Origin: Isurus oxyrinchus
Taxonomy: Eukaryota
Assembly: GCA_026770705.1 (NCBI GenBank)
Contig: JANJGN010001723.1
Location: 62,001 to 113,693, forward strand
Length of the DNA stretch: 51,693 nt
Reading direction: 5' to 3'
Part shown: one piece after another, positions 18,001-46,080 of the stretch
Layout of the letters: each line of letters opens with the position of its first letter
How positions within the stretch are numbered: position 1 is the stretch's first letter
Program-made: the position numbers and the translations under genes
The notes under the pieces: generated by a model
Told to the model about the DNA's origin: nothing
The model's input: only the letters and a program-made list of their open reading frames with translations
Databases searched by the model: none

Positions 18001-21000
18001 ATGTACAGAGAGAGAGTAATAGGTGAAAGAGAGAGGGAGAGATGTACACAGAGAGAGTAAAAGGTGACAGAGAGAGGGAGAGATGTACAGAGAGAGAGTA
18101 AAAGGTGACAGAGAGAGGGAGAGATGTACAGAGAGAGAGTAAAAGGTGACAGAGAGAGAGAGAGAGATATACACAGAGAGTAAAAGGTGACAGAGAGAGG
18201 GAGAGATGTACACAGAGAGTAAAAGGTGACAGAGAGAGAGAGTGATGTACAGAGAGAGAGTAAAAGGTGACAGAGAGAGAGGGAGAGATGTACACAGAGG
18301 GAGTAAAAGGTGACAGAGAGAGAGAGAGATGTACAGAGAGAGAGTAAAAGGTGACAGAGAGAGAGGGAGAGATGTACACAGAGAGAGTAAAAGGTGACAG
18401 AGAGAGAGGGAGAGATGTACACAGAGAGAGAGTAAAAGGTGAGCGAGAGAGAGAGGGAGGGATGTACACAGAGAGAGTAAAAGATGACAGAGAGAGGGAG
18501 AGATGTACACAGAGAGTAAAAGTTGACAGAGAGGGGGAGAGATGTACACAGAGAGAGTTAAAGGTGACAGAGTGAGAGAGAGATGTTCACAGAGAGTAAA
18601 AGGTGGCAGAGAGAGAGAGAGATGTACACAGACAGAGAGTAAAAGGTGACAGAGGGAGAGATGTACACAGAGAGTAAAAGGTGACAGAGAGAGAGAGAGA
18701 TGTACACAGAGAGAGAGTAAAAGTTGACAGAGAGAGAGAGGGAGAGATGTACACAGAGAGAGTAAAAGGTGACAGAGAGAGGGAGAGATGTACACAGAGA
18801 GAGTAAAAGGTGACAGAGAGAGAGAGAGGGAGAGATGTACAGAGAGAGTAAAAGGTGACAGAGAGAGGGAGGGAGAGATGTACACAGAGAGAGATTAAAA
18901 GGTGACAGAGAGAGAGAGAGATGTACACAGAGATTAAAAGGTGACAGAGAGAGAGAGAGAGATGTACAGAGAGAGAGATTAAAAGTTGACAGAGAGAGAG
19001 AGAGAGAGATGTACACAGAGAGAGTAAAATGTGACAGAGAGAGAGAGAGATGTACACAGAGAGAGAGTAAAAGGTGACAGAGAGAGAGAGAGATGTACAC
19101 AGAGAGACTGAAAGGTGACAGAGAGAGGGAGAGATGTACACAGAGAGTAAAAGGTGACAGAGAGAGAGAGGGAGAGATGTACAGAGAGAGTAAAAGGTGA
19201 AAGAGAGAGAGAGAGGGAGAGATGTACAGAGAGAGTAAAAGGTGACAGAGAGAGAGAGAGAGATGTACACAGAGAGAGTTAAAGGTGACAGAGAGAGGGA
19301 GAGATGTACACAGAGAGTAAAAGGTGACAGAGAGAGGGAGAGATGTACAGAGAGAGAGTAAAATGCGACAGAGAGAGAGAGATGTACACAGAGAGAGAGT
19401 AAATGGTGACAGAGAGAGGGAGAGATGTACACAGAGAGAGTAAAAGGTGACAGAGTGAGGGAGAGATGTACAGAGAGAGAGTAAAAGGTGACAGAGAGAG
19501 AGAGAGAGATATACACGGAGAGTAAAAGGTGACAGAGAGAGGGAGAGATGTACACAGAGAGTAAAAGGTGACAGAGAGAGAGAGAGATGTACAGAGAGAG
19601 AGTAAAAGGTGACAGAGAGAGAGAGGGAGAGATGTACACAGAGAGTAAAAGGTGACAGAGAGAGACAGGGAGAGATGTACACAGAGAGAGTAAAAGGTGA
19701 CAGAGAGAGGGAGAGATGTACACAGAGAGAGTAAAAGGTGACAGAGAGAGAGAGAGGGAGAGATGTACAGAGAGAGAGTAAAAGGTGACAGAGAGAGAGG
19801 GGGAGATGTACACAGAGAGAGTAAAAGGTGACAGAGAGAGAGAGAGATGTACAGAGAGAGAGTAAAAGGTGACCGAGAGAGAGTGAGAGATGTACACAGA
19901 GAGAGTAAAAGGTGACAGAGTGAGAGGGAGAGATGTACACAGAGAGAGAGTAAAAGGTGACAGAGAGAGAGAGAGAGATGTACACAGAGAGTAAAAGTTG
20001 ACAGAGAGAGGGAGAGATGTACAGAGAGAGAGTAAAAGGTGACAGAGAGAGAGAAGGAGAGATGTACACAGAGAGAGTAAAAGGTGACAGAGAGAGAGAG
20101 AGATGTACAGAGAGAGAGTAAAAGGTGACAGAGTGAGAGGGAGAGATGTACACAGAGAGAGTAAAAGGTGACAGAGTGAGAGGGAGAGATGTACACAGAG
20201 AGAGTAAAAGGTGACAGAGAGAGAGAGAGGGAGAGATGTACACAGAGAGTAAAAGGTGACAGAGAGAGGGAGGGAGAGATGTACACAGAGAGAGATTAAA
20301 AGGTGACAGAGAGAGAGAGAGATGTACACAGAGAGTAAAAGGTGACAGAGAGAGAGAGAGAGAGAGATGTACAGAGAGAGAGATTAAAAGTTGACAGAGA
20401 GAGAGAGAGAGATGTACACAGAGAGAGTAAAATGTGACAGAGAGAGAGAGAGATGTACACAGAGAGAGAGTAAAAGGTGACAGAGAGAGAGAGAGATGTA
20501 CACAGAGAGAGTGAAAGTTGACAGAGAGAGGGAGAGATGTACACAGAGAGTAAAAGGTGACAGAGAGAGAGAGGGAGAGATGTACAGAGAGAGTAAAAGG
20601 TGAAAGAGAGAGAGAGAGGGAGAGATGTACAGAGAGAGTAAAAGGTGACAGAGAGAGAGAGAGATGTACAGAGAGAGAGTAAAAGGTGAAAGAGAGAGAG
20701 AGATGTACACAGAGAGAGTAAAAGGTGACAGAGAGAGGGAGAGATGTACACAGAGAGTAAAAGTTGACAGAGAGGGGGAGAGATGTACACAGAGAGAGTA
20801 AAAGGTGACAGAGAGAGGGAGAGATGTACACAGAGAGTAAAAGGTGACAGAGAGAGAGAGAGATGTACACAGACAGAGAGTAAAAGGTGACAGAGGGAGA
20901 GATGTGCACAGAGAGTAAAAGGTGACAGAGAGAGAGAGAGATGTACACAGAGAGAGAGTAAAAGTTGACAGAGAGAGAGAGGGAGAGATGTACACAGAGA

Positions 21001-24000
21001 GAGTAAAAGGTGGCAGAGAGAGGGAGAGATGTACACAGAGAGAGTAAAAGGTGACAGAGAGAGAGAGAGGGAGAGATGTACAGAGAGAGTAAAAGGTGAC
21101 AGAGAGAGGGAGGGAGAGATGTACACAGAGAGAGATTAAAAGGTGACAGAGAGAGAGAGAGATGTACACAGAGATTAAAAGGTGACAGAGAGAGAGAGAG
21201 AGAGAGATGTACAGAGAGAGAGATTAAAAGTTGACAGAGAGAGAGAGAGAGAGATGTACACAGAGAGAGTAAAATGTGACAGAGAGAGAGAGAGATGTAC
21301 ACAGAGAGAGAGTAAAAGGTGACAGAGAGAGAGAGAGATGTACACAGAGAGACTGAAAGGTGACAGAGAGAGGGAGAGATGTACACAGAGAGTAAAAGGT
21401 GACAGAGAGAGAGAGGGAGAGATGTACAGAGAGAGTAAAAGGTGAAAGAGAGAGAGAGAGGGAGAGATGTACAGAGAGAGTAAAAGGTGACAGAGAGAGA
21501 GAGAGATGTACAGAGAGAGAGTAAAAGGTGAAAGAGAGAGAGAGAGGGAGAGATGTACAGAGAGAGTAAAAGGTGACAGAGAGAGAGAGAGATGTACACA
21601 GAGAGAGTTAAATGTGACAGAGAGAGAGAGAGATGTACACAGAGAGAGAGTAAAAGGTGACAGAGAGAGAGAGAGATGTACACAGAGAGACTGAAAGGTG
21701 ACAGAGAGAGGGAGAGATGTACACAGAGAGTAAAAGGTGACAGAGAGAGAGAGGGAGAGATGTACAGAGAGAGTAAAAGGTGAAAGAGAGAGAGAGAGGG
21801 AGAGATGTACAGAGAGAGTAAAAGGTGACAGAGAGAGAGAGAGATGTACAGAGAGAGAGTAAAAGGTGAAAGAGAGAGAGAGAGGGAGAGATGTACAGAG
21901 AGAGTAAAAGGTGACAGAGAGAGAGAGAGATGTACAGAGAGAGAGTAAAAGGTGACAGAGAGAGAGAGGGAGAGATGTACACAGAGAGTAAAAGGTGACA
22001 GAGAGAGACAGGGAGAGATGTACACAGAGAGAGTAAAAGGTGACAGAGAGAGGGAGAGATGTACACAGAGAGAGTAAAAGGTGACAGAGAGAGAGAGAGG
22101 GAGAGATGTACAGAGAGAGAGTAAAAGGTGACAGAGAGAGAGGGGGAGATGTACACAGAGAGAGTAAAAGGTGACAGAGAGAGAGAGAGATGTACAGAGA
22201 GAGAGTAAAAGGTGACCGAGAGAGAGTGAGAGATGTACACAGAGAGAGTAAAAGGTGACAGAGTGAGAGGGAGAGATGTACACAGAGAGAGAGTAAAAGG
22301 TGACAGAGAGAGAGAGAGAGATGTACACAGAGAGTAAAAGTTGACAGAGAGAGGGAGAGATGTACACAGAGAGTGTTAAAGGTGACAGAGAGAGAGAGAG
22401 ATGTACAGAGAGAGAGTAAAAGGTGACAGAGTGAGAGGGAGAGATGTACACAGAGAGAGTAAAAGGTGACAGAGTGAGAGGGAGAGATGTACACAGAGAG
22501 AGTAAAAGGTGACAGAGAGAGAGAGAGGGAGAGATGTACACAGAGAGTAAAAGGTGACAGAGAGAGGGAGGGAGAGATGTACACAGAGAGAGATTAAAAG
22601 GTGACAGAGAGAGAGAGAGATGTACACAGAGAGTAAAAGGTGACAGAGAGAGAGAGAGAGAGAGATGTACAGAGAGAGAGATTAAAAGTTGACAGAGAGA
22701 GAGAGAGAGAGATGTACACAGAGAGAGTAAAATGTGACAGAGAGAGAGAGAGATGTACACAGAGAGACAGTAAAAGGTGACAGAGAGAGAGAGAGATGTA
22801 CACAGAGAGAGTGAAAGTTGACAGAGAGAGGGAGAGATGTACACAGAGAGTAAAAGGTGACAGAGAGAGAGAGGGAGAGATGTACAGAGAGAGTAAAAGG
22901 TGAAAGAGAGAGAGAGAGGTAGAAATGTACAGAGAGAGTAAAAGGTGACAGAGAGAGAGAGAGATGTACAGCGAGAGAGTAAAAGGTGAAAGAGAGAGAG
23001 AGATGTACACAGAGAGAGAGTAAAAGGTGACAGAGAGAGAGAGAGATGTACACAGAGGGAGTTAAAGGTGACAGAGAGAGGGAGAGATGTACACAGAGAG
23101 TAAAAGGTGACAGAGAGAGGGAGAGATGTACAGAGAGAGAGTAAAATGTGACAGAGAGAGAGAGATGTACACAGAGAGAGAGTAAATGGTGACAGAGAGA
23201 GGGAGAGATGTACACAGAGAGAGTACAAGGTGACAGAGAGAGGGACAGATGTACACAGAGAGAGTAAAAGGTGACAGAGAGAGAGAGAGAGAGATGTACA
23301 GAGAGAGAGTAAAAGGTGACAGAGAGAGAGAGAGAGATATACACGGAGAGTAAAAGGTGACAGAGAGAGGGAGAGATGTACACAGAGAGTAAAAGGTGAC
23401 AGAGAGAGAGAGAGATGTACAGAGAGAGAGTAAAAGGTGACAGAGAGAGAGAGGGATAGATGTACACAGAGAGTAAAAGGTGACAGAGAGAGACAGGGAG
23501 AGATGTACACAGAGAGAGTAAAAGGTGACAGAGAGAGGGAGAGATGTACACAGAGAGAGTAAAAGGTGACAGAGAGAGAGAGAGGGAGAGATGTACACAG
23601 AGAGAGTAAAAGGTGACAGAGTGAGAGGGAGAGATGTACACAGAGAGAGAGTAAAAGGTGACAGAGAGAGAGAGAGAGATGTACACAGAGAGTAAAAGTT
23701 GACAGAGAGAGGGAGAGATGTACACAGAGAGTGTTAAAGGTGACAGAGAGAGAGAGAGATGTACAGAGAGAGAGTAAAAGGTGACAGAGTGAGAGGGAGA
23801 GATGTACACAGAGAGAGTAAAAGGTGACAGAGTGAGAGGGAGAGATGTACACAGAGAGAGTAAAAGGTGACAGAGAGAGGGAGAGATGTACACAGAGAGT
23901 AAAAGTTGACAGAGAGGGAGAGATGTACACAGAGAGAGTTAAAGGTGACAGAGAGAGAGAGAGATGTACACAGAGAGTAAAAGGTGACAGAGAGAGAGAG

Positions 24001-26058
24001 AGATGTGCACAGAGAGAGAGTAAAAGGTGACAGAGAGAGAGAGGGATGTACACAGAGAGAGAGTTTAAGGTGACAGAGGGAGAGATGTACACAGAGAGTA
24101 AAAGGTGAGAGAGAGAGAGAGAGAGATGTACACAGAGAGTTAAAGGTGACAGAGAGAGAGAGAGATGTACACAGAGAGAGAGTAAAAGGTGACAGAGAGA
24201 GAGAGGGAGAGATGTACACAGAGAGAGTAAAAGGTGGCAGAGAGAGAGAGAGAGAGATGTACACAGAGAGAGTAAAAGGTGACAGAGAGAGAGAGGGATG
24301 TACACAGAGAGAGAGTAAAAGGTGACAGAGGGAGAGATGTACACAGAGAGTAAAAGGTGACAGAGAGAGAGAGAGAGATGTACACAGAGAGTTAAAGGTG
24401 ACAGAGAGAGAGAGAGATGTACACAGAGAGAGAGTAAAAGGTGACAGAGAGAGAGAGGGAGAGATGTACACAGAGAGAGAGTAAAAGGTGACAGAGCGAG
24501 GGAGAGATGTACACAGAGAGAGAGTAAAAGGTGACAGAGAGAGGGAGAGATGTACACAGAGAGTAAAAGGTGACAGAGAGAGAGAGGGAGAGATGTACAG
24601 AGAGAGAGTAAATGGTGACAGAGAGAGGGAGAGATGTACACAGAGAGTAAGAGGTGACAGAGAGAGAGAGGGAGAGATGTACACAGAGAGAGAGTAAAAG
24701 GTGACAGAGAGAGAGAGGGAGAGATGTACACAGAGAGAGTAAAAGGTGACAGAGAGAGTGAGGGAGAGTTGTACACAGAGAGAGTAAAACGTGACAGAGA
24801 GAGAGAGGGAGAGATGTACACAGAGAGAGTAAAAGGTGACAGAGAGAGGGAGAGATGTACACAGAGAGTAAGAGGTGACAGAGAGAGAGAGGGAGAGATG
24901 TACACAGAGAGAGAGTAAAAGGTGACAGAGAGAGAGAGGGAGAGATGTACACAGAGAGAGTAAAAGGTGACAGAGAGAGTGAGGGAGAGATGTACACAGA
25001 GAGAGTAAAACGTGACAGAGAGAGAGAGGGAGAGATGTACACAGAGAGAGTAAAAGGTGACAGAGAGAGGGAGGGAGAGATGTACACAGAGAGAGTAAAA
25101 GGTGACAGAGAGAGGGAGAGATGTACACAGAGAGAGAGTAAAAGGTGACAGAGAGAAGGAGAGATGTACACAGAGAGTAAAAGGTGACAGAGAGAGAGAG
25201 GGAGAGATGTACACAGAGAGAGTAAAAGGTGACAGAGAGAGAGAGGGAGAGATGTACACAGAGAGAGAGTAAAAGGTGACAGAGAGAGGGAGAGATGTAC
25301 ACAGGGAGTAAAAGGTGACAGAGAGAGGGAGAGATGTACACAGAGAGTGAAAGGTGACAGAGAGAGGGAGGGAGAGATGTACACAGAGAGAGAGTAAAAG
25401 GTGTCAGAGAGAGGGAGAGATGTACACAGAGAGTAAAAGGTGACAGAGAGAGAGGGAGAGATGTACACAGAGAGTAAAAGGTGACAGAGAGAGGGAGAGA
25501 TGTACACAGAGAGTATAAGGTGACCGAGAGAGAGAGGGAGAGATGTACACAGAGAGTAAAAGGTGACAGAGAGAGGGAGAGATGTACACAGAGAGTAGAA
25601 GGTGACAGAGCGAGAGGGAGAGATGTACACAGAGAGAGTAAAAGGTGACAGAGAGAGAGAGGGAGAGATGTACACAGAGAGTAAAAGGTGACAGAGAGAG
25701 AGGGAGAGATGTACACAGAGAGTAAAAGGTGACAGAGAGAGAGAGGGAGAGATGTACACAGAGAGAGTAAAAGGTGACAGAGAGAGAGAGGGAGAGATGT
25801 TCACAGAGAGAGAGTAAACTGTAACAGAGAGAGGGAGAGATGTTCACAGAGAGAGAGTAAAAGGTGGCAGAGAGAGGGAGAGATGTACACAGAGAGTAAA
25901 AGGTGACAGAGAGAGAGAGAGATGTACACAGAGAGAGAGTAAAAGGTGACAGAGAGAGGGAGGGATGTACACACAGAGTAAAAGGTGACAGAGAGAGAGG
26001 GAGAGATGTACACAGAGAGAGTAAAATGTGACAGAGGGAGAGATGTACACAGAGAGAG
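1..26058. repeat. GA-rich ~40-bp satellite array, consensus GATGTACAC(AG)nTAAAAGGTGAC(AG)n(GG)AGA, more than 600 units, running off the 5' end of the window
   Basis: Two fixed cores (ATGTACAC and TAAAAGGTGAC) are separated by variable (AG)n tracts throughout. The array decays into unique GA-rich sequence at about 26060. Identical ORF translations recur at fixed offsets, showing higher-order duplication. Confidence 0.98.
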
Positions 26059-26538
26059 AAGGGGACAGTCAGAGCATGAGGCTGAATGTGACACTGTGAG
26101 AGACGGAAACTAGGAGACAGAGAGAGTGAGAGAAGGGGAGAGAGAGTAGGACAGATAACCAGTGTGAGAGAGCGAGATCGGGGGAGACTGAGACACAAGG
26201 AGTATAACTGTCCATGCTCGCAAACGTGAACAATTTATTCACCCAACCTGGAATGAAAAATTATTCTCGGTGGTGCTGATGGTGATTAGAGTGGTAAGTT
26301 ATTAGAATCCACCAGTGTCAGGAGCCTTGGCACTCGACTCTGGCCCAGGACTGATTCAGACCCACAGCGATGTGGTGTGTGCATTAACTGTCCTCTCATA
26401 GGGCAAAGCCAGACACTCGGCTCGATCCCAGAAGGCAGGGCAGGCTGCGAACGGGGCCGGGAGATGCTGGAGGCACTGTCATTGGGGCTGAATAGGCAAT
26501 GGAACTTGTCTTAATAACTCCCCTCTCCCCTAATCCAG

Positions 26539-26630
26539 AAGCGCTCCAGCCACCAGAAGTCTGTTATGTCTTGGATGCTGCCCTGTTCGTCTATGGAATT
26601 GTTTTAACTGCTCTCTACTGTCGTCTGAAG
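26539..26630 (+). CDS. fcer1g: Fc receptor common gamma chain (FcR-gamma)-like gene, extracellular/transmembrane exon: xALQPPEVCYVLDAALFVYGIVLTALYCRLK
   Basis: Acceptor ccctctcccctaatccag| and donor AAG|gtaagg; 92 bp, phase 1 to phase 0. The translation aligns by eye to human FCER1G [31 protein letters not shown], keeping the dimer Cys, transmembrane Asp and YCRLK. As I recall, the human exon has the same length and phases. Confidence 0.93.
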
Positions 26631-26640
26631 GTAAGGGCTA

Positions 26641-27460
26641 GAGGGGTTACTGAGTGACAGTGTGAGCGAGCTGGATTAACATCAGTAGAGATACAGTCAG
26701 TAACACAGGGTGCTGGGGGAGAGGGATTACTGAGTGACAGTGTGAGGGAGTTGGATTAACATCAGTAGAGATACAGTCAGTAACACAGTGTGCTGGGGGG
26801 AGAGGGGTTACTGAGTGACAGTGTGAGGGAGCTGGATTAACATCAGTAGAGATACAGTCAGTAACACAGGGCGCTGGGGGGAGAGGGGTTACTGAGTGAC
26901 ATTGTGAGGGAGCTGGATTAACATCAATAGAGATACAGTCAGTAACACAGGGTGCTGGGGGAGAGGGGTTACTGAGTGACAGTGTGAGGGAGCTGGATTA
27001 ACATCAGTAGAGATACAGTCATTAACACAGGGTGCTGGGGGGAGAGGGGTTACTGAGTGACAGTGTGAGGAAGCTGGATTAACATCAGTAGAGATACAGT
27101 CAGTAACACAGGGTGCTGGGGGGAGAGGGGTTACTGAGTGACACTGTGAGGGAGCTGGATTAACATCAGTAGAGATACAGTCAGTAACACAGGGTGCTGG
27201 GGGGAGAGGGGTTACTGAGTGACAGTGTGAGGGAGCTGGATTAACATCAGTAGAGATACAGTCAGTAATACAAGGTGCTGGGGGGAGAGGGTTTACTGAG
27301 TGACAGTGTGAGGGAGCTGGATTAACATCATAGAGATACAGTCAGTAACACAGTGTGCTGGGGGAGAGGGGTTACTGAGTGACAGTGTGAGGGTGCTGGA
27401 TTAACATCAGTAGAGATACAGTCAGTAACACAGGGTGCTGGGGGGGGCGGGGTTAACATC
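26641..27460. repeat. 80/81-bp minisatellite, about 10 copies, intronic
   Basis: Unit GAGGGGTTACTGAGTGACAGTGTGAGGGAGCTGGATTAACATCAGTAGAGATACAGTCAGTAACACAGGGTGCTGGGGGGA starts at 26641, 26721, 26802, 26883 and onward. It begins 10 nt after the exon donor. Confidence 0.95.
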
Positions 27461-27710
27461 AGTGGGATTCAGTAGGCGCTCTCCGCTGTTTGGGAGTGAG
27501 GGCACCCCCGAATTTTGGAGATAATTCAGAGCAGGTTTGCCAAGACTCAGCTTGAAGCCACTAGATCAACGGGGGGGGGGGTGGTGGGTGAGGGTGGGGC
27601 GGAGAACGTGTGTCTTTTGAAAAAGAGTTCGGAGAAGGGATGGAGGAGAGAGAGGGTTTGTGCCTCACGCGCTGACCTTGACTCATTCTTTTCTCTTACA
27701 TCTTATTCAG

Positions 27711-27755
27711 TTACAGATGCGTAAGAAAGCTTCTGGCCAACCCTCCGTGTATGAG
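27711..27755 (+). CDS. fcer1g: FcR-gamma-like cytoplasmic exon LQMRKKASGQPSVYE, containing the first ITAM tyrosine
   Basis: Branch-like CTGAC and pyrimidine tract ending ...tcttattcag|; donor GAG|gtatgg; 45 bp, phase 0/0. It resembles human IQVRKA... and continues the frame of the transmembrane exon. Confidence 0.88.
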
Positions 27756-27889
27756 GTATGGAAAGTCCGATGCTTTGTTTGGGGGGGGGGTGGGGGAGGG
27801 GATGGAGGGTTTGGTGGGGGAGTGCGAGGATTCGGACTCTGTGTTGTAGAGGTGACTCGAAGTTCCAATATCGGGATACAGGCAAGAAA

Positions 27890-28196
27890 CTGACCAATGC
27901 CTGTCACCGGCAGCAATACTACCACTCTCCACGTCCCAGATACAAACATCCCTCCCCTCAATTCAAATCCGCACTCCCCGTGCAACGTAACATCTGACGC
28001 TGGGTGAAGACATCTGCCCTGGTCCTCGTCGGGCCCTCCTGGTCCTTTACCCTGATTCTCCTCAACCTGTGACCCACTGGTCACCGACCCTCCTACCACG
28101 GGGGACCGCTTCTCCACCTGCAATCCATGGAAACTCTCCCACCTTTAAAACGACTTGATTGAATCCCCTCTCAATCTCCCCTGCTCCAGGAGAGAA
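27890..28196 (-). mobile_element. Old, diverged CR1-type LINE 3' fragment (antisense)
   Basis: Motifs ctgggtgaaga...aacctgtgacccactggt...gaatcccctctcaatctcccctgctccaggagagaa resemble the reverse complement of vertebrate CR1 ORF2 3' ends. Recognised by eye only. Confidence 0.5.
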
Positions 28197-28205
28197 GGCA
28201 CCATT

Positions 28206-28419
28206 GGGTGAGAGGGTTAATCCCCCTCCGATAGGGAACAGGCTGCCCGGTGTGTGTAAATGGGGAGAGGTGTGTGAGAGGGTTAATCCCCCTCCGATAG
28301 GGAACAGGCTGCCCGGTGTGTGTAAATGGGGAGAAGTGTTTGAGAGGGTTAATCCCGCTCCGATTGGGAACAGGCTGCCCGGTGTGTGTAAATGGGGAGA
28401 GGTGGGTGAGAGGGTTAAT
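28206..28419. repeat. 66-bp minisatellite, about 3.2 copies, intronic
   Basis: Unit GAGAGGGTTAATCCCCCTCCGATAGGGAACAGGCTGCCCGGTGTGTGTAAATGGGGAGAGGTGTGT. It appears as a 22-aa repeat in ORF 28159..28485. Confidence 0.93.
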
Positions 28420-28445
28420 GCCAAAAAACTGTGTACATGTTTCAG

Positions 28446-28520
28446 GAAATTCGAGGTAACCAGAAGGATGTTTACCATGAACTGAAGTCTGGGAAAGTGG
28501 AATCTCGGAAGGAAATGCCA
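28446..28520 (+). CDS. fcer1g: FcR-gamma-like ITAM exon EIRGNQKDVYHELKSGKVESRKEMP
   Basis: Acceptor catgtttcag| and donor CCA|gtgagt; 75 bp, phase 0/0. Joined to the previous exon it gives a canonical ITAM YEEI-x7-YHEL, split after Yx| as in human YT|GL. Confidence 0.88.
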
Positions 28521-28596
28521 GTGAGTAGAAATTTAAACATGAAGAAAAAATTTCCCTGAAACCCTAAAGAGAGCAATGCTCTTAAAAACTGTTTTG

Positions 28597-31500
28597 TGTG
28601 TTTGATGGGGACAGTGTAGAGGGAGATTTACTCTGTATCTAACCCCGTGCTGTACCTGTCCTGGGAGTGTTTGATGGGGACAGTGTAGAGGGAGATTTAC
28701 TCTGTATCTAACCCCGTGCTGTACCTGTCCTGGGAGTGTTTGATGGGGACAGTGTAGAGGGAGCTTTACTCTGTATCTAACCCCGTGCTGTACCTGTCCT
28801 GGGAGTGTTTGATGGGGACAGTGTAGAGGGAGATTTACTCTGTATCTAACCCCGTGCTGTACCTGTCCTGGGAGTGTTTGATGGGGACAGTGTAGAGGGA
28901 GATTTACTCTGTATCTAACCCCGTGCTGTACCTGTCCTGGGAGTGTTTGATGGGGACAGTGTAGAGGGAGATTTACTCTGTATCTCACCCCGTGCTGTAC
29001 CTGTCCTGGGAGTGTTTGATGGGGACTGTGTAGAGGGAGATTTACTCTGTATCTAACCCCGTGCTGTACCTGTCCTGGGAGTGTTTGATGGGGGCAGTGT
29101 AGAGGGAGATTTACTCTGTATCTAACCCTGTGCTGTACCTGTCCTGGGAGTGTATGATGGGGACAGTGTAGAGGGAGCTTTACTCTGTATCTAACCCCGT
29201 GCTGTACCTGTCCTGGGATTGTTTGATGGGGGCAGTGTAGAGGGAGATTTACTCTGTATCTAACCCCGTGCTGTACCTGTCCTGGGAGTGTTTGATGGGG
29301 ACAGTGTAGAGGGAGCTTTACTCTGTATCTAACCCCGTGCTGTACCTGTCCTGGGAGTGTTTGATGGGGACAGTGTAGAGGGAGATTTACTCTGTATCTA
29401 ACCCCGTGCTGTACCTGTCCTGGGAGTGTTTGATGGGGGCAGTGTAGAGGGAGATTTACTCTGTATCTAACCCTGTGCTGTACCTGTCCTGGGAGTGTAT
29501 GATGGGGACAGTGTAGAGGGAGCTTTACTCTGTATCTAACCCCGTGCTGTACCTGTCCTGGGATTGTTTGATGGGGGCAGTGTAGAGGGAGATTTACTCT
29601 GTATCTAACCCCGTGCTGTACCTGTCCTGGGAGTGTATGATGGGGACAGTGTAGAGGGAGCTTTACTCTGTATATAACCCCGTGCTGTACCTGTCCTGGG
29701 AGTGTTTGATGGGGACAGTGTAGAGGGAGATTTACTCTGTATCTAACCCCGTGCTGTACCTGTCCTGGGAGTGTTTCATGGGGACAGTGTAGAGGGAGAT
29801 TTACTCTGTATCTAACCCCGTGCTGTACCTGTCCTGGGAGTGTTTGATGGGGGCAGTGTAGAGGGAGATTTACTCTGTATCTAACCCTGTGCTGTACCTG
29901 TCCTGGGAGTGTATGATGGGGACAGTGTAGAGGGAGCTTTACTCTGTATCTAACCCCGTGCTGTACCTGTCCTGGGATTGTTTGATGGGGGCAGTGTAGA
30001 GGGAGATTTACTCTGTATCTAACCCCGTGCTGTACCTGTCCTGGGAGTGTTTGATGGGGACAGTGTAGAGGGAGCTTTACTCTGTATCTAACCCCGTGCT
30101 GTACCTGTCCTGGGAGTGTTTGATGGGGACAGTGTAGAGGGAGATTTACTCTGTATCTAACCCCGTGCTGTACCTGTCCTGGGAGTGTTTGATGGGGGCA
30201 GTGTAGAGGGAGATTTACTCTGTATCTAACCCTGTGCTGTACCTGTCCTGGGAGTGTATGATGGGGACAGTGTAGAGGGAGCTTTACTCTGTATCTAACC
30301 CCGTGCTGTACCTGTCCTGGGATTGTTTGATGGGGGCAGTGTAGAGGGAGATTTACTCTGTATCTAACCCCGTGCTGTACCTGTCCTGGGAGTGTATGAT
30401 GGGGACAGTGTAGAGGGAGCTTTACTCTGTATCTAACCCCGTGCTGTACCTGTCCGGGGAGTGTTTGATGGGGACAGTGTAGAGGGAGCTTTACTCTGTA
30501 TCTAACCCCGTGCTGTACCTGTCCTGGGAGTGTTTGATGGGGACAGTGTACAGGGAGATTTACTCTGTATCTAACCCCATGCTGTACCTGTCCTGGGAGT
30601 GTTTGATGGGGACAGTGTAGAGGGTGCTTTACTCTGTATCTAACCCCGTGCTGTACCTGTCCTGGGAGTGTTTGATGGGGACAGTGTAGAGGGAGATTTA
30701 CTGTGTATCTAACCCCGTGCTGTACCTGTCCTGGGAGTGTTTGATGGGGACAGTGTAGAGGGAGATTTACTCTGTATCTAACACTGTGCTGTACCTGTCC
30801 TGGGAGTGTTTGATGGGGACAGTGTACAGGGAGATTTACTCTGTATCTAACACTGTGCTGTACCTGTCCTGGGAGTGTTTGATGGGGACAGTGTACAGGG
30901 AGATTTACTCTGTATCTAACACTGTGCTGTACCTGTCCTGGGAGTGTTTGATGGGGACAGTGTAGAGGGAGATTTACTCTGTATCTAACCCCGTGCTGTA
31001 CCTGTCCTGGGAGTGTTTGATGGGGACAGTGTAGAGGGAGATTTACTCTGTATCTAACCCCGTGCTGTACCTGTCCCGGGAATGTTTGATGGGGACAGTG
31101 TAGAGGGAGATTTACTCTGTATCTAACCCCGTGTTGTACCTGTCCTGGGTGTGTTTGATGGGGACAGTGTAGAGGGAGATTTACTCTGTATCTAACCCTG
31201 TGCTGTACCTGTCCTGGGAATGTTTGATGGGGACAGTGTAGAGGGAGATTTACTCTGTATCTAACCCCGTGTTGTACCTGTCCTGGGAGTGTTTGATGGG
31301 GACAGTGTAGAGGAAGCTTTACTCTGTATCTAACCCTGTGCTTTACCTGTCCTGGGAGTGTTTGATGGGGACAGTGTAGAGGGAGATTTACTCTGTATCT
31401 AACCCCGTGCTGTACCTGTCCTGGGAGTGTTTGATGGGGACAGTGTAGAGGGAGATTTACTCTGTATCTAACCCCGTGCTGTACCTGTCCTGGGAGTGTT

Positions 31501-32155
31501 TGATGGGGACAGTGTAGAGGGAGCTTTACTCTGTATCTAACCCCGTGTGGTACCTGTCCTGGGAGTGTTTGATGGGGACAGTGTAGAGGGAGCTTTACTC
31601 TGTATCTAACCCCGTGCTGTCCCTGTCCTGGGAGTGTTTGATGGGGACAGTGTAGAGGGAGCTTTACTCTGTATCTAACCCCGTGCTGTACCTGTCCTGG
31701 GAGTGTTTGATGGGGACAGTGTAGATGGAGATTTACTCTGTATCTAACACTGTGCTGTACCTGTCCTGGGAGTGTTTGATGGGGACAGTGTAGAGGGAGC
31801 TTTACTCTGTATCTAACCCCGTGCTGTACCTGTCCTGGGAGTGTTTGATGGGGACAGTGTAGAGGGAGATTTACTCTGTATCTAACCCCGTGCTGTACCT
31901 GTCCTGGGAATGTTTGATGGGGACAGTGTAGAGGGAGATTTACTCTGTATCTAACCCCGTGCTGTACCTGTCCTGGGAGTGTTTGATGGGGACAGTGTAG
32001 AGGGAGATTTACTCTGTATCTAACCCCGTGCTGTACCTGTCCTGGGAATGTTTGATGGGGACAGTGTAGAGGGAGCTTTACTCTGTATCTAACCCCGTGC
32101 TGTACCTGTCCTGGGAGTGTTTGATGGGGACAGTGTAGAGCGATATTTACTCTGA
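28597..32155. repeat. 69-bp satellite array 1, about 51 copies, intronic
   Basis: Unit GGGAGTGTTTGATGGGGACAGTGTAGAGGGAGATTTACTCTGTATCTAACCCCGTGCTGTACCTGTCCT, head-to-tail with no spacers. Confidence 0.98.
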
Positions 32156-32194
32156 ACCAGCTGACTGAAAGCTGCTATTTTCTGTGTTTGGCAG

Positions 32195-32218
32195 TCACGT
32201 TCTCTGAGATGCCATTAA
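32195..32218 (+). CDS. fcer1g: Probable terminal coding exon of the FcR-gamma-like gene (SRSLRCH*), followed by about 400 nt of 3' UTR
   Basis: CTGAC at 32161 and acceptor tattttctgtgtttggcag|. Phase-0 reading TCA CGT TCT CTG AGA TGC CAT TAA, followed by unique sequence and AATAAA at 32624. No homology support for these 7 residues. Confidence 0.6.
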   Translation, partial: SRSLRCH

Positions 32219-32623
32219 TCTTGGCCCAACGCTCTTGTCTTGTGTGAGAACAGCAGCTTGTTTTAATCTTTCTGTATCAGGCTCCGATCTTGGTTGTCAC
32301 TATCAGGCATGGTATTTCCTCAAGTTTAATCTTTGCCTCCTTCTGTGGTGCTGTCTGATTGTTATTTGACCATCACTGAGGGACGGATACTCCCCACTTT
32401 CAGGCTGCTCACAGTTCAGCCCTTCATCCACCTATTATTCTGCCAATCCTGGGGCTTTAGCCCTGGGGATGCTGTGTTGTGGGAGGGTGAGAACCACTGA
32501 GATCCTCATCCCCCGTCTAGGCTCTTCTTTATCAATAACCCTTTGAATGGAAGGAGTGTTTGCGTTCCTTCATCCCCCAGCAAGTGGACAATTTCAAATC
32601 CAGCAGCAAGTTTTTGTGGGTTA

Positions 32624-32629
32624 AATAAA
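32624..32629 (+). terminator. Candidate polyadenylation signal AATAAA of the FcR-gamma-like gene
   Basis: First canonical AATAAA after the stop at 32218. A T-rich run lies upstream (tttttgtggg) and GT-rich sequence downstream. Confidence 0.5.
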
Positions 32630-35600
32630 GATGCTTGTGATTGTTGGAGGTCAGTCATCTCAGCTCCAGGACATCACTGCAGGAGTTCCTCAGGGTAGTG
32701 TCCTCGGCCCAACCATCTCCAGCTGCTTCATCAATGACCTTCCTTCCATCATAAGGTCAGAAGTGGGGATGTTCACTGATAATTGCACAATGTTCAGCAC
32801 CATTCACAACTCCTCAGATACTGAAGCAGTCCATGTCCAAATGCAGCAAGACCTGGACATTATCCAGGCTTGGGCTGACAAGTGGCAAGTAACATTCACA
32901 CCACGCAAGTGTCAGGCAATGACCATCTCCAACAAGAGAGAATCCAACCATCGGCCCTTGATGTTCAATGGTATTACCATCACTGAATCCCCCCACTATC
33001 AACATCCTGGGGGTTACCACTGACCAGAAACTGAACTGGGACCAGCCATATAAATACTGTGGCTACAAGAGCAGGTCAGAGGCTGGGAATCCTGTGGAGA
33101 GTAACTCAGCTCCTGTCTCCCCAAAGCCTGTCCACCATCTACAAGGCACAAGTCAGGAGTGTGATGGAATACTCCCCACTTGCCTGGGTGAGTGCAGCTC
33201 CCACAACACTCGAGAAGCTCGACACCGTCCAGGACAAAGCAGCCCCGCTGGATTGGCACCCCATCCACAAACATTCACTCCCTCCACCACCGACACACAG
33301 TAGCAGCAGTGTGTACCATCTACAAGATGCACTGCAGGAATTCACCAAGGCTCCTTCGACAGCACCTTCCAAACCCACGACCACTACCATCTAGAAGGAC
33401 AAGGGCAGCAGATAGATGGGGACACCACCTCCTGGAAGTTCCCCTCCAAGTCACTCACCATCCTGACTGGGAAATATATCACCGTTCCTTCACTGTCGCT
33501 GGGTCAAAATCCTGGAACTCCCTCCCTAACAGCACTGTGGGTGTACCTACACCATAGGGACAAAATCCTGGAACTCCCTCCCTAACAGCGCTGTGGGTGT
33601 ACCTACACCACAGGGGACAAAATCCTGGAACTCCCTCCCTAACAGCACTGTGGGTGTACCTACACCACAGGGACAAAATCCTGGAACTCCCTCCCTAACA
33701 GCACTGTGGGTGTACCTACACCACAGGGACAAAATCCTGGAACTCCCTCCCTAACAGCACTGTGGGTGTACCTACACCACAGGGACAAAATCCTGGAACT
33801 CCCTCCCTAACAGCACTGTGGGTGTACCTACACCACAGGGACAAAATCCTGGAACTCCCTCCCTAACAGCACTGTGGGTGTACCTACACCACACGGGGAC
33901 AAAATCCTGGAACTCCCTCCCTAACAGCGCTGTGGGTGTACCTACACCACAGGGACAAAATCCTGGAACTCCCTCCCTAACAGCACCGTGGGTGTACCTA
34001 CACCACAGGGACAAAATCCTGGAACTCCCTCCCTAACAGCACGGTGGGTGTACCTACACCACACGGACAAAATCCTGGAACTCCCTCCCTAACAGCACTG
34101 TGGGTGTACCTACACCACACGGACAAAATCCTGGAACTCCCTCCCTAACAGCACTGTGGGTGTACCTACACCACACGGACAAAATCCTGGAACTCCCTCC
34201 CTAACAGCACAGTGGGAGTACCTACACCACAGGGACAAAATCCTGGAACTCCCTCCCTAACAGCACTGTGGGTGTACCTACACCACACGGACAAAATCCT
34301 GGAACTCCCTCCCTAACAGCGCTGTGGGTGTACCTACACCACACGGACAAAATCCTGGAACTCCCTCCCTAACAGCACTGTGGGTGTACCTACACCACAC
34401 GGACAAAATCCTGGAACTCCCTCCCTAACAGCACTGTGGGTGTACCTACACCACAGGGGACAAAATCCTGGAACTCCCTCCCTTACAGCACTGTGGGTGT
34501 ACCTACACCACACGGGACAAAATCCTGGAACTCCCTCCCTAACAGCACTGTGGGTTTACCTACACCACAGGGGACAAAATCCTGGAACTCCCTCCCTAAC
34601 AGCACTGTGGGTGTACCTACACCACAGGGACAAAATCCTGGAACACCCTCCCTAACAGCACTGTGGGTGTACCTACACCACAGAGACAAAATCCTGGAAC
34701 TCCCTCCCTAACAGCGCTGTGGGTGTACCTACACCACAGGGACAAAATCCTGGAACTCCCTCCCTAACAGCACTGTGGGTGTACCTACACCACAGGGGAC
34801 AAAATCCTGGAACTCCCTCCCTAACAGCACCGTGGGTGTACCTACACCACACGGGGACAAAATCCTGGAACTCCCTCCCTAACAGCACTGTGGGTGTACC
34901 TACACCACACGGACAAAATCCTGGAACTCCCTCCCTAACAGCACTGTGGATGTACCTACACCACAGGGACAAAATCCTGGAACTCCCTCCCTAACAGCGC
35001 TGTGGATGTACCTACACCACAGGGGACAAAATCCTGGAACTCCCTCCCTAACAGCACCGTGGGTGTACCTACACCACACGGGGACAAAATCCTGGAACTC
35101 CCTCCCTAACAGCGCTGTGGGTGTACCTACACCACACGGACAAAATCCTGGAACTCCCTCCCTAACAGCACGGTGGGTGTACCTACACCACACGGACAAA
35201 ATCCTGGAACTCCCTCCCTAACAGCGCCGTGGGTGTACCTACACCACACGGACAAAATCCTGGAACTCCCTCCCTAACAGCACTGTGGGTGTACCTACAC
35301 CACACGGACAAAATCCTGGAACTCCCTCCCTAACAGCACTGTGGGTGTACCTACACCACACGGACAAAATCCTGGAACTCCCTCCCTAACAGCACAGTGG
35401 GAGTACCTACACCACACGGACAAAATCCTGGAACTCCCTCCCTAACAGCACTGTGGGTGTACCTACACCACACGGACAAAATCCTGGAACTCCCTCCCTA
35501 ACAGCGCTGTGGGTGTACCTACACCACACGGGACAAAATCCTGGAACTCCCTCCCTAACAGCACTGTGGGTGTACCTACACCACAGGGACAAAATCCTGG

Positions 35601-36829
35601 AACTCCCTCCCTAACAGCGCTGTGGGTGTACCTACACCACAGGGACAAAATCCTGGAACTCCCTCCCTAACAGCGCTGTGGGTGTACCTACACCACACGG
35701 ACAAAATCCTGGAACTCCCTCCCTTACAGCACTGTGGGTGTACCTACACCACAGGGACAAAATCCTGGAACTCCCTCCCTAACAGCGCTGTGGCTGTACC
35801 TACACCACACGGACAAAATCCTGGAACTCCCTCCCTAACAGCACTGTGGGTGTACCTACACCACACGGACAAAATCCTGGAACTCCCTCCCTAACAGCGC
35901 TGTGGGTGTACCTACACCACAGGGACAAAATCCTGGAACTCCCTCCCTAACAGCGCTGTGGGTGTACCTACACCACACGGGACAAAATCCTGGAACTCCC
36001 TCCCTAACAGCGCCGTGGGTGTACCTACACCACAGGGGACAAAATCCTGGAACTCCCTCCCTAACAGCGCTGTGGGTGTACCTACACCACAGGGACAAAA
36101 TCCTGGAACTCCCTCCCTAACAGCACTGTGGGTGTACCTACACCACACGGACAAAATTCTGGAACTCCCTCCCTAACAGCATGGTGGGTGTACCTACACC
36201 ACAGGGACAAAATCCTGGAACTCCCCTCCCTAACAGCACTGTGGGTGTACCTACACCACAGGGACAAAATCCTGGAACTCCCTCCCTAACAGCGCTGTGG
36301 GTGTACCTACATCACAGGGACACAATCCTGGAACTCCCTCCCTAACAGCACGGAGGGTGTACCTACACCACACAGACACAATCCTGGAACCCCCTCCCTA
36401 ACAGCACGGTGGGTGTACCTACACCACACGGACAAAATCCTGGAACTCCCTCCCTAACAGCACTGTGGGTGTACCTACACCACACGGACAAAATCCTGGA
36501 ACTCCCTCCCTAACAGCACTGTGGGTGTACCTACACCACACGGACAAAATCCTGGAACTCCCTCCCTAACAGCGCTGTGGGTATACCTACACCACAGGGA
36601 CAAAATCCTGGAACTCCCTCCCTAACAGCGCTGTGGGTGTACCTACACCACAGGGACAAAATCCTGGAACTCCCTCGCTAACAGCACTGTGGGTGTACCT
36701 ACAGCACACGGGGACTGCAGCGGCTGAAGAAGGCAGCTCACCCCCCACCTTCTCAAGGGGGGCAATTAGGGATGGGCAATAAATGCTGGGCCCGGCCAGC
36801 GACACCCACACCCTGTCAATGAATAAAAA
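32627..36829 (+). mobile_element. 5'-truncated CR1-clade LINE (HER1-like): degenerate RT C-terminus and 3' end, interrupted by an internal tandem expansion
   Basis: ORF 32631..33023 has AGVPQGSVLGP...FINDL...MFTDNC (decayed FADD motif)...WADKWQVTF. It continues through frameshifts into LSTIYKAQVRSVMEYSPLAW. The 3' end ...GGCAATTAGGGATGGGCAATAAATGCTGG...GAATAAAAA finishes at about 36829. Confidence 0.92.
33501..36712. repeat. 56-58-bp minisatellite, about 57 copies, derived from the CR1 3' region
   Basis: Unit GGGACAAAATCCTGGAACTCCCTCCCTAACAGCACTGTGGGTGTACCTACACCACA. The first unit is contiguous with upstream LINE sequence and the last continues into GGACTGCAGCGG of the LINE tail. Confidence 0.97.
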
Positions 36830-36937
36830 CAGTTGACATGCTCAGCCTGACATCGAACTCCCCGGCTCTCCCCTCACACATACTTGCTCCAGAGGGGTAC
36901 AGTTATAGAGAATAGTGCACTTTTACAGGTTACCAAC

Positions 36938-36946
36938 AAGGAAGTG
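36938..36946 (+). promoter_or_regulatory. Possible ETS/PU.1-type site AAGGAAGTG in a candidate promoter
   Basis: The motif lies about 230 nt upstream of the candidate ATG at 37171, next to a locally CpG-retaining unique stretch. It is a short motif and may be chance. Confidence 0.25.
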
Positions 36947-37170
36947 ACTGTTCTGTTTTCGAGAACGTGCGTTCGCAGGCCCGCTGGAGGAGCTGTCTTC
37001 ACTGCAGACGTGCAGTTCGAGTAAATGCAGCAGCCCCTGTGGATTCCCGCATTCTCTGTAAGAGACGGACGGTCTGCAGCTCTGACTTGGGGTTGCCTGC
37101 AGCCCAGTTACCAGGAGCTCAGGTTGCTGTGTTGCGGAGCCTGATAAGCAACCGGCTGGGAGGCTTTGCG

Positions 37171-37257
37171 ATGTTACAGCCTCTGGGTCTAAAGGCGTCG
37201 GTGCTGTTGCCTTGGCTGCTGCTGCTGTCTCTCTCTCTACACACAACTCTTCATGAG
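37171..37257 (+). CDS. Candidate signal-peptide first exon of an unidentified second gene (MLQPLGLKASVLLPWLLLLSLSLHTTLHE)
   Basis: ATG with G at -3, a Lys followed by the hydrophobic core VLLPWLLLLSLSL, and a possible donor GAG|gtcaga. Unspliced, the frame runs to TGA at 37348-37350 (59 aa). No downstream exon was identified. Confidence 0.4.
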
Positions 37258-37379
37258 GTCAGAGGAGACCGTCAAGGCTGCCCTACCACGTGGCTCATCG
37301 TGGCTCCCTCGGGCCTAGGTTGGAGCAGCCGCAACCTGGGTTACTGTTGAGGGTATTAACCCCGCCGGGAGTTGAGACA

Positions 37380-37450
37380 ATGGGGTCCTAGTCTCTCCTA
37401 CTAATGGAAAACTCTTCCCAACGTCCGCTTTATCCAGACCTTTCAGTTTC
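37380..37450 (-). mobile_element. Short antisense CR1 3' fragment
   Basis: ggtcctagtctctcctactaatggaaaactcttcccaacgtccgctttatccagacctttcag; the minus strand translates as LKGLDKADVGKSFPLVGETRT, typical of the CR1 ORF2 C-terminus. Confidence 0.65.
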
Positions 37451-37694
37451 CTTTTGCCCTCAATAGACAGATTGGCACCTCCTGCGTTCCCAGGGCTGGT
37501 CAGATGACCCCCAGTGACCTTCGTCCGCAGCGCATATGCTTTCACGTTGTTTGGAAGGAAGGTCTGTCGCAAAAGGTTCTACATGGAGCAAGGTTCCTGG
37601 TTGGAAGGTTGTGACCAGGATATGACTTTGCTGGGCTTAACAGCTGCAATCCCGCGTGGGGCGCTCGCCCAAGGTAGGCTGCAAATCTTGCGGC

Positions 37695-38512
37695 CCTTAG
37701 GCCGCACAGCCTGGGCCTCTAGTTCCACATTGGGTCACACGCCCTTGGGCCCTCATTCCAGGTTAGGCCGCACAGCCTGGGGCTCCAGTTCTGGGTTAGG
37801 CCCTAAAGCAGGCTGCTATAGTCCCAGGTTAGGCCGCACAGCCTGGGGCTCCAGTTCTGGGTTAGGCCCTAAAGCACGCCGCTATAGTCCCAGGTTAGGC
37901 CGCACAGCCTGGGACTCCAGTTCTGGGTTAGGCCCTAAAGCACGCCGCTATAGTCCCAGGTTAGGCCACACAGCCTGGGGCTCCAGTTCTGGGTTAGGCC
38001 CTAAAGCAGGCCGCTATAGTGCCAGGTTAGGCCGCACAGCCTGGGGCTCCAGTTCTGGGTTAGGCCCTAAAGCAGGCCGCTATTGTCCTAGGTTAGGCCG
38101 CACAGCCTGGGGCTCCAGCTCTGGGTTAGGCCCTAAAGCAGGCCGCCATAGTCCCAGGTTAGGCCGCACAGCCTGGGGCTCCAGCTCTGGGTTAGGCCCT
38201 AAAAACACGCCGCTATAGTCCCAGGTTAGGCCGCACAGCCTGGGGCTCCAGTTCTGGGTTAGGCCCTAAAGCAGGCCGCTATAGTCCCAGGTTAGGCCGC
38301 ACAGCCTGGGGCTCCAGTTCTGGGTTAGGCCCTAAAGCAGGCCGCTATAGTCCCAGGTTAGGCCGCACAGCCTGGGGCTCCAGTTCTGGGTTAGGCCCTA
38401 AAGCAGGCCGCTATAGTCCCAGGTTAGGCCGCACAGCCTGGGACTCCAGTTGTGGGTTAGGCCCTAAAGCAGGGCCGCTATTGGCCTAGGTTAGGCCGCA
38501 CAGCCTGGGCCT
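37695..38512. repeat. 66-bp minisatellite (dimer of diverged 33-bp halves), about 12 copies
   Basis: Unit GGTTAGGCCGCACAGCCTGGGGCTCCAGTTCTG-GGTTAGGCCCTAAAGCAGGCCGCTATAGTCCCA; a 22-aa repeat in ORF 37514..38218. Confidence 0.95.
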
Positions 38513-39030
38513 CCTTATTTAAGGAAGGAGGTACTTGCATTGGAAACAGTTCCGAGACGCGTCACTTGGCCGAATCCTGGGACGAAGGGGCTGTCTTGTG
38601 AAGAAAGGGGTGGGTTGGCCCGGGATCCATTGGACTTGGTCGAATGAGGGGTGACCTTACTGAAAGCGTGCAGCATCCCCGTGGGGACCTGACAGGGCGG
38701 ATGCTGAGGGGGGGTTTCCACTCGGTGGAGGGGGTGGAGTAGGTGGGGGGGAGACTGGAACGAGGGGGCACGGTTTGAGAATCAGGCTCTAAGGGGCAGG
38801 TGAGGAGGAACTGTTCCCTCTCTCTGGGAGAGCAGTGGGAGCTGGGTCACGGAATATACTCCAGGCTGACTTAGATCGAGTTAGAGTGGCGAGAGAGTCA
38901 CAGGTGATGGGAGGGAGACAGGCAGGAAGCTGGAGCAGAGACCACCCTCAGTTCAGCTATGATCTTGATGAATGGTGGAGCAGGCTCGCTGGGCCGAATG
39001 GCCTACTTCTGCTCCTCATTTTGTGTTCTT
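38513..39030 (+). mobile_element. Diverged CR1 LINE 3' fragment (different subfamily from 32627-36829)
   Basis: cttatttaaggaagga...gaatgaggggtgaccttactgaaa...gacctgacaggg...gatcttgatgaatggtggagcaggctcgctgggccgaatggcctacttctgctcct matches the typical CR1 ORF2 end and 3' UTR pattern. Confidence 0.75.
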
Positions 39031-39036
39031 GTCACA

Positions 39037-41025: not shown

Positions 41026-41242
41026 GTCTGAACACTTAATCTCTGCAGCAAAGACGAGCGTTAAAAACAGGCTCCTCTCCAACTGAGTTTATTGCAACAT
41101 AAGGATTCCCAATCCCATGGGAAAGATTTGAGGGGGACAGGAGTTTGTGAAGCATCCAGCTGTTCGACTGTGTGAGCCTCGCCGCCTGTAGGATGTCATC
41201 CCGTTCCTGTACGCCCTCTGCCCCCAAACACCCACTCGCTGC

Positions 41243-42046
41243 CCCCCACTGCTCCCCCTCCTCCCCACTGATCCCCCTCCTCCCCACTGATCCCCCTCCT
41301 CCCCACCGCTCCCCCTCCTCCCCACTGATCCCCCTCCTCCCCCTCCTCCCCACTGATCCCCCTCCTCCCCACTGCTCCCCCTCCTCCCCACTGATCCCCC
41401 CTGCTCCCCACTGATCCCCCTCCTCCCCACTGCTCCCCCTCCTCCCCCTCCTCCCCACTGATCCCCCTCCTCCCCACTGATCCCCCTCCTCCCCCTCCTC
41501 CCCACTGATCCCCCCTCCTCCCCACTGATCCCCCTCCTCCCCACTGATCCCCCTCCTCCCCACTGCTCCCCCTCCTCCCCCTCCTCCCCCTCCTCCCCAC
41601 TGATCCCCCTCCTCCCCACTGATCCCCCTCCTCCCCACTGATCCCCCTCCTCCCCCTCCTCCCCCTCCTCCCCACTGATCCCCCCTCCTCCCCACTGATC
41701 CCCCTCCTCCCCACTGATCCCCCTCCTCCCCACTGATCCCCCTCCTCCCCACTGATCCCCCTCCTCCCCCTCCTCCCCCTCCTCCCCACTGATCCCCCTC
41801 CTCCCCACTGATCCCCCTCCTCCCCACTGCTCCCCCTCCTCCCCACTGATCCCCCTCCTCCCCACTGCTCCCCCTCCTCCCCACTGATCCCCCTCCTCCC
41901 CACTGATCCCCCTCCTCCCCACTGATCCCCCTCCTCCCCACTGATCCCCCTCCTCCCCACTGATCCCCCTCCTCCCCCTCCTCCCCACTGCTCCCCCTCC
42001 TCCCCACTGATCCCCCTCCTCCCCACTGATCCCCCTCCTCCAACCC
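41243..42046. repeat. C-rich 19-bp minisatellite (CCCCACTGATCCCCCTCCT)n with interspersed 9-bp CCCCCTCCT units
   Basis: Direct inspection shows about 40 units. The minus strand is rich in G-runs. Confidence 0.96.
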
Positions 42047-42160
42047 CAGTGCAGTTTGTCCCTGTCCCCACCATATACAAGGCACTCACGCACATCTTTA
42101 AAAGCACTTTAATACAAATTAATACAAGAGAAATTGGCTGAGAGCTGAATGTCCTGTTGT

Positions 42161-45348: not shown

Positions 45349-45732
45349 CACCCCCTCACTGAACTGTAATAATCTAAAAAGATGGCTTCATTTTTATTAA
45401 CCAATTTGAAACTATCTCCTGTACTTATCTATATACTTACAGTATCACATTACCAGATGCATGCATTTAACATAACAGATATATAAATGCTTCACATCAG
45501 CAGAAATCATTCCAGTTCAGAGTCCAGGTTTTTAAACTCCAACCTTCCCTTTAAACTCCCAACTCTTGATAAATCATCTGCAATCAGATTTTCTTGTCCA
45601 GCGACATGTATAACCTGTGGATTAAGAGGTTGCAGTAATAACTTCCACCTGAATAGCCTCACACATCTGAATTGGGACATGTCCAGGAACCTTTCAGGAT
45701 TGCGTTCTATACAAAGAACCGTTTCCGACCAG

Positions 45733-45950: not shown

Positions 45951-46080
45951 AAAATGCTGCAATGCTCGCACCAAACCCAACTTCTCCTTTTCAATGGTTG
46001 AGTATATTCTCTGTTGTGCAATTAGCTTCTGTGAAAAATACCCTATCGGTTTTTCAACTGAATTGTCATCTTCCTGTAAC

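Follow-up and report, generated by a model that had tools for sequence, protein, structure and literature searches.

A 51,693-nt stretch of the genome of the shark Isurus oxyrinchus (the window; all coordinates below are positions in it) carries exons 2 to 4 of a gene of the FcR-gamma/CD3-zeta family, whose members contain ITAMs, or immunoreceptor tyrosine-based activation motifs. We hold, with a probability of roughly 0.9, that this gene is the lamniform shark orthologue of FCER1G, which encodes FcR-gamma, and that it has a six-exon, two-ITAM form; jawed vertebrates probably had two ITAMs ancestrally. The gene consists of a signal-peptide exon, a transmembrane exon, a 45-bp exon, an extra 75-bp exon, a 21-bp exon and a terminal exon, the first and the last two of these lying outside the window. 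The exon 3/4 border falls within the first module of ITAM1, and the exon 5/6 border divides ITAM2, the canonical one. The protein has about 116 residues and contains YEEI-x7-YHEL, a 17-residue gap and, as in close relatives, YTGL-x7-YESL. An earlier note on this DNA, made from the sequence alone, had proposed a gene model covering 26539-32218; its placement of the gene as a cartilaginous-fish member of the family, closest to FCER1G and with a non-mammalian exon layout, holds, while the ITAM that it had taken for the canonical one is in fact the additional, membrane-proximal motif.

Exons 2 to 4

Exons 2, 3 and 4 (Table 1) are bounded by canonical splice sites, and joined in frame they encode a transmembrane helix with Cys-x3-Asp, the sequence YCRLK and the ITAM YEEI-x7-YHEL, exactly as the earlier note had read them. 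Together they specify 70 residues, of which 69 are the same in the FCER1G-like protein of the white shark, Carcharodon carcharias (XP_041036563.1; 30/30 residues in exon 2, 15/15 in exon 3 and 24/25 in exon 4), the single difference being a Pro in the white shark where the window has Ser, at position 28488. Ungapped scores against this protein reach 156/156, 75/75 and 125/133 for the three exons, whereas the next-best matches of the same white-shark segments within the window score 26, 25 and 28, and the exon at 26539-26630 matches Pfam TCR_zetazeta (PF11628) with E=4.2e-15 and 55.6 bits (cut-off 25). Because of this E-value and of ungapped scores so far above the next-best ones, the match of exons 2-4 is far beyond chance. 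Elasmobranch RefSeq models of FcR-gamma, including that of Carcharodon, are like the gene described here in exons 2-4, in the 7-residue exon and in the terminal ITAM, and identity to the RefSeq shark proteins across the join argues for the predicted junction 26630/27711.

An in-frame ATG lies 40 bases 5' of exon 2 (26499-26538) and opens a frame into the transmembrane exon. The Cetorhinus gene model reads through this intron stretch but has Lys there, so the ATG is probably not a conserved start. The signal-peptide exon was not found in the window, where the best match was only 29/76 and fell inside a fragment of a long interspersed nuclear element (LINE).

Transcripts continue into a second ITAM

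Spliced contigs from four of the five listed sequencing runs guessed to be RNA, all with the same species label, were compared with the window over 28421-28596 only. The four runs represent at most three samples and three studies, and their RNA status was guessed by the search tool, though the contigs are spliced; a run search with 27456-28200, which is mostly intron, listed no RNA run. All four contigs cover exactly 28444-28520, without intron cover. At the upstream loose end they carry the 3' part of exon 27711-27755, and so the spliced contigs of each of the four runs bear out the junction 27755/28446 drawn in the earlier note. The downstream loose end, which begins after 28520, reads KEDGIYT-GLD in three contigs and KEEGIYT-GLD in that of run X16; the exon-5 residue that is Asp in these three runs is Glu in the white shark. 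This is the usual 21-bp exon, encoding seven residues, followed by the start of the terminal exon, and the end of the shark protein beyond exon 4 can be read in the contigs for 10 codons (30 nt). The 75-bp exon is included in all four contigs aligned to it, although a skipped form could not show in such an alignment.

Over exon 4 run X15 is identical to the window and X12, X13 and X16 differ from it at 28488. The codon at this position, in the exon 4 linker and outside the ITAM, specifies Ser, Ala or Pro among the window and the runs, and the variation may represent other alleles or related species.

Neither of the last two exons is present in the window: the 21-nt exon has no match at up to three mismatches and a six-frame search found no match to either. 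Therefore intron 4 passes the end of the window, or the assembly puts exons 5 and 6 elsewhere.

The earlier note had continued the gene differently. It made the 75-bp exon the sole ITAM exon and joined 28520 to a terminal exon at 32195. Such a protein, whether the main or a minor isoform, would have one ITAM and a tail of 19 residues after YHEL, with an in-frame stop after 7 codons. The acceptor-like site is a good one by a crude score (of the 510 AG sites in the non-repeat DNA downstream, 6, counting this one, score at least as well), an AATAAA follows at 32624, the canonical exons 5-6 either lie more than 23 kb off or are missing from the window, and rare variants drop out of contigs. However, all four contigs join 28520 to the canonical 21-nt exon, and the 28520/32195 join is absent from their loose ends, with the proviso that contigs drop rare forms. 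The AATAAA adjoins a LINE reverse-transcriptase fragment that starts at 32625. Moreover, a C-terminus of this kind occurs in none of nine shark proteins examined: in eight, which are long forms, the exon-4 peptide is followed by a 7-residue block (K/Q-EEGIYT) and then by the terminal ITAM, and the ninth skips the exon-4 peptide and keeps the same end. An end at 32195 is accordingly very improbable, and in its main form the protein does not stop about 19 residues after the first ITAM, since the 21-bp and terminal exons follow and provide the second. In human FCER1G a 36-bp and a 21-bp exon stand between the transmembrane exon and the terminal ITAM exon. The earlier note took the shark 45-bp exon to replace this pair, which was mistaken, as the 21-bp exon does exist and comes after the 75-bp exon.

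Table 1. Features of the FCER1G region in the window
Feature	Position	Strand	Description
Presumed part of intron 1	1..26538	+	nearly all 41-bp tandem array; assignment to the intron presumed
FCER1G exon 2	26539..26630	+	92 bp, AG/GT; short ectodomain, Cys-x3-Asp transmembrane helix, YCRLK
Exon 3	27711..27755	+	45 bp; juxtamembrane basic stretch; 3' end is the first half (Tyr-Glu) of the first module of ITAM1
Exon 4 (extra, without counterpart in mammals)	28446..28520	+	75 bp, phase 0-0; rest of ITAM1 and 12-residue linker
Intron 4	28521..51693	+	>23 kb, full of repeats; exon 5 (21 bp) and the terminal exon 6 (ITAM2) presumably past the window end
Terminal exon of the earlier note	32195..32218	+	acceptor-like site; no contig support; at most a minor alternative end

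FcR-gamma and CD3-zeta

The family to which the gene belongs includes CD247 (CD3-zeta), which shares the Pfam TCR_zetazeta transmembrane family and carries more than one ITAM, an exon border dividing each of them. A rival reading is that the gene is CD247, or a CD247-like paralogue cut to two ITAMs. A transmembrane exon, an exon ending in Tyr-x and a long ITAM exon are the CD247 pattern, and the white-shark protein aligns to CD3-zeta unbroken over its residues 18-91. The sequence scores nevertheless favour FcR-gamma. Among PDB sequences, exon 2 matches FcR-gamma with 41.7 bits and CD3-zeta with at most 35.2, and the whole white-shark protein scores 67.5 bits against FcR-gamma and 51.3 against CD3-zeta, with its C-terminal ITAM aligned to the ITAM of FcR-gamma; the alignment to mammalian FcR-gamma consists of two pieces, one on each side of the insert. 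The succession of a 21-bp exon and a terminal ITAM exon, visible as the 7-residue block and GLD in all four contigs, is likewise of FcR-gamma type. The rule YxxL/I-x7-YxxL/I with an exon border in the first module (PMC4536121) is followed, as judged by pattern, although at E 0.05 the white-shark protein gave no match to Pfam ITAM (PF02189). Two ITAMs are present in near-identical shark proteins, compared with three in CD247.

Similar results came from homologues. Six shark proteins came back from a homolog search, each with an FcR-gamma or FcR-gamma-like annotation, and 101 of 102 profile matches are FcR-gamma-type by name or by eye. In a tree, the window groups with Carcharodon and Cetorhinus in a shark clade (support 99/96), and all 34 FcR-gamma rows are split from eight teleost CD247-like rows (100/99), which sit on a separate long branch. 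The only CD247 rows in this tree are teleost CD247-like ones, and the tool warned of long branches meeting; a query with an Alosa CD247-like protein for shark or tetrapod CD247 yielded 13 teleost proteins only. An approximately unbiased (AU) test did not reject sharks beside the CD247-like outgroup (p=0.597), and therefore the position of the root does not follow from the tree alone. On the scores, the exon structure and the separate branch of the CD247-like rows, we regard a CD247 origin as most improbable. No flanking gene was recognised in the window, and a Pfam scan of 13 downstream open reading frames gave one LINE reverse-transcriptase match only and no second gene.

One Chiloscyllium punctatum model, XP_072420861.1, bears the automatic name 'CD3 zeta chain-like', which taken at face value would favour CD247. 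By sequence it is the same two-ITAM FcR-gamma, and the name is likely a misannotation.

Distribution of the two-ITAM form

The earlier note had offered the exon layout as novel unless it proved to be standard elsewhere, and standard it is, in both chondrichthyans and amphibians. Among database proteins the layout was found in sharks, rays, skates, caecilians and frogs. When 19 hand-picked, named chondrichthyan and amphibian long forms were counted, two strict ITAMs were present in 16 and the 7/17/7 spacing of tyrosine modules in 14, including two caecilians and Bombina. By comparison, the named FcR-gamma-type proteins of ray-finned fish, amniotes and Latimeria carry a single ITAM or are truncated at the end, although one Diretmus model gives extra ITAM-pattern matches. 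Mammalian FCER1G, with five exons and one ITAM, shares the transmembrane helix with Cys-x3-Asp, YCRLK, the 7-residue exon and the terminal ITAM; it is without the 25-residue exon and ITAM1, keeps a lone Tyr, and has a shorter exon 3, of 36 bp against 45 bp in the shark.

A close counterpart exists in Xenopus. According to one report, the FcR-gamma genes of Xenopus have six exons compared with five in the mammalian and teleost genes, the additional exon makes a second ITAM with an exon border in the first module, and the two-ITAM form, first described by Guselnikov in 2003, is termed a 'unique feature' of X. laevis (PMC4536121). The likeness of the X. laevis gene to that of the shark, six exons and two ITAMs in each, is drawn here from this published description. 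The form described as unique to X. laevis is now seen also in the shark studied here and, from database proteins, across sharks, rays and skates, caecilians and other frogs.

The annotated long and short isoforms of Scyliorhinus torazame (118 and 93 aa) and of Geotrypetes (120 and 95 aa) differ in each case by exactly the 25 residues of exon 4, which suggests that sharks and caecilians still splice the 75-nt cassette in or out and so set the number of ITAMs. Long and short splice forms, with loss of an ITAM exon, are said to have been part of Guselnikov's 2003 description as well. The first 16 residues of exon 4 scored above composition shuffles in all five comparisons with amphibian segments (p 0.0001-0.006); against Callorhinchus p was 0.0007 when anchored on the second Tyr, an anchor chosen post hoc, and 0.18 with the first anchor. 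A lone Tyr closes the exon-3 segment, just before the 7-residue block, in 16 of 108 single-ITAM rows, comprising turtles, squamates, mammal-like rows, Latimeria, Amia, two skipped isoforms and one teleost. Human Tyr58 would be this residue.

Loss or gain

It seems likely that the ancestral FcR-gamma of jawed vertebrates had two ITAMs, with the 75-nt exon as a skippable cassette, that the cassette was lost in ray-finned fish, the coelacanth and amniotes, and that the lone Tyr is its scar; FcR-gamma would then be older than bony fish. The coelacanth probably fixed the skipped form too. The suggestion in the earlier note that the extra exon is a relic of a multi-ITAM ancestor was right in direction, but the exon concerned is the 75-bp one and not that at 32195. 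The alternative is that the gene is FCER1G and that chondrichthyans and amphibians gained the extra ITAM exon separately. Two gains are fewer events than three losses by a simple count, and the basal ray-finned Erpetoichthys, Polypterus, Acipenser and Amia, together with the one Latimeria model, have one ITAM. Separate gains must however explain why sharks and caecilians have the exon at the same position, with the same 25-residue length, the same 7/17/7 spacing and a similar sequence, and why a lone Tyr is left in amniotes, Latimeria and Amia. They must also be set against the paralogue CD247, which has three ITAMs (PMC4536121). On these grounds we regard independent gain as unlikely, though less so than either a CD247 origin or an end at 32195.

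Several observations weigh against a two-ITAM FCER1G of ancestral form, in addition to the AU result and a tree that holds no shark or tetrapod CD247 sequence. Exons 5 and 6 are known only as 30 nt of contig loose end and not from genomic DNA, and the difference from the window at 28488 in three of the four runs means that these may come from other alleles or from a relative. ITAM1 departs from the strict motif in Narcine (YEQM) and in Callorhinchus (YGIE, with a 6-residue spacer), and the Rhincodon model diverges after exon 5 and is without ITAM2. The shuffle test is driven partly by anchoring on tyrosines. A vestigial Tyr is missing from 92 of the 108 single-ITAM rows, mostly teleosts, and the 16 rows that have one include the two skipped isoforms and one likely chance case. 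Finally, a quick tree needs at least three state changes, a number that does not separate gain from loss.

Repeats around the exons

Much of the window is repetitive. A 41-bp purine-rich tandem array of about 617 copies occupies 26 kb (2-26058), with a GC skew of about 0.7, and apparently lies in intron 1; with its arrays, a gene for about 116 residues spans more than 51 kb. Intron 4 holds three distinct arrays of one and the same 69-bp tandem unit (28598-32154, 42153-44466 and 50552-51693), and further arrays with units of 81, 66, 56, 66, 31 and 19 bp lie in other introns. The LINE reverse-transcriptase fragment extends over 32625-36830 (Pfam RVT_1, E=2.5e-12 at 32625-33020); by eye the 56-bp array at 33501-36708 seems to be an amplification of its 3' part, and a single related copy lies near 46090-46290. 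The region 44500-50500 is AT-richer and looks by eye like a decayed long terminal repeat retrotransposon on the minus strand, and the stop-free open reading frames tested there had no Pfam match.

Proposed function and significance

FcR-gamma and CD3-zeta chains form Cys-linked dimers, assemble with receptors through a transmembrane Asp, and are phosphorylated by Src-family kinases to provide docking sites for Syk or ZAP-70. By analogy with the mammalian chains, the shark protein would form a disulphide-linked dimer through its transmembrane Cys and pair through its Asp with ligand-binding receptor chains, and its ITAMs would be phosphorylated by Src-family kinases and bound by Syk or ZAP-70. 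A dimer of the long form would then carry four ITAMs instead of two, doubling the docking sites. Exon 4 is of phase 0-0 and cuts ITAM1 within the first module, so that skipping the exon would remove ITAM1 cleanly and leave a mammal-like chain with one ITAM; permanent skipping, more than once, would have produced the five-exon gene. Two-ITAM ancestry would therefore mean that FcR-gamma predates both bony fish and the known Fc receptors.

The literature has placed the chain differently. The gamma chain is said in two papers to be lacking in cartilaginous fish (PMC4016189; PMC5742104). That statement is contradicted by RefSeq and UniRef entries, including V9LFN2 of Callorhinchus, and by the window. 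The passages searched in four further papers contain nothing on a shark FcR-gamma (PMC5278576; PMC6795676; PMC11929736; PMC10507400). In the literature searched, which left most subscription journals outside, no description of a two-ITAM shark FcR-gamma was found, nor any statement that two ITAMs are ancestral and were repeatedly lost.

The gene is already annotated automatically in many elasmobranch genomes, close relatives of Isurus among them, and the value of the finding lies in the reading of loss across lineages. It corrects the printed statements that the two-ITAM form is unique to X. laevis (PMC4536121) and that cartilaginous fish have no FcR-gamma (PMC4016189; PMC5742104). The shark chain bridges the FcR-gamma with one ITAM and the CD3-zeta with three, its long and short isoforms offer a natural pair for testing the effect of ITAM number, and it may serve as bait for finding the activating receptors of sharks.

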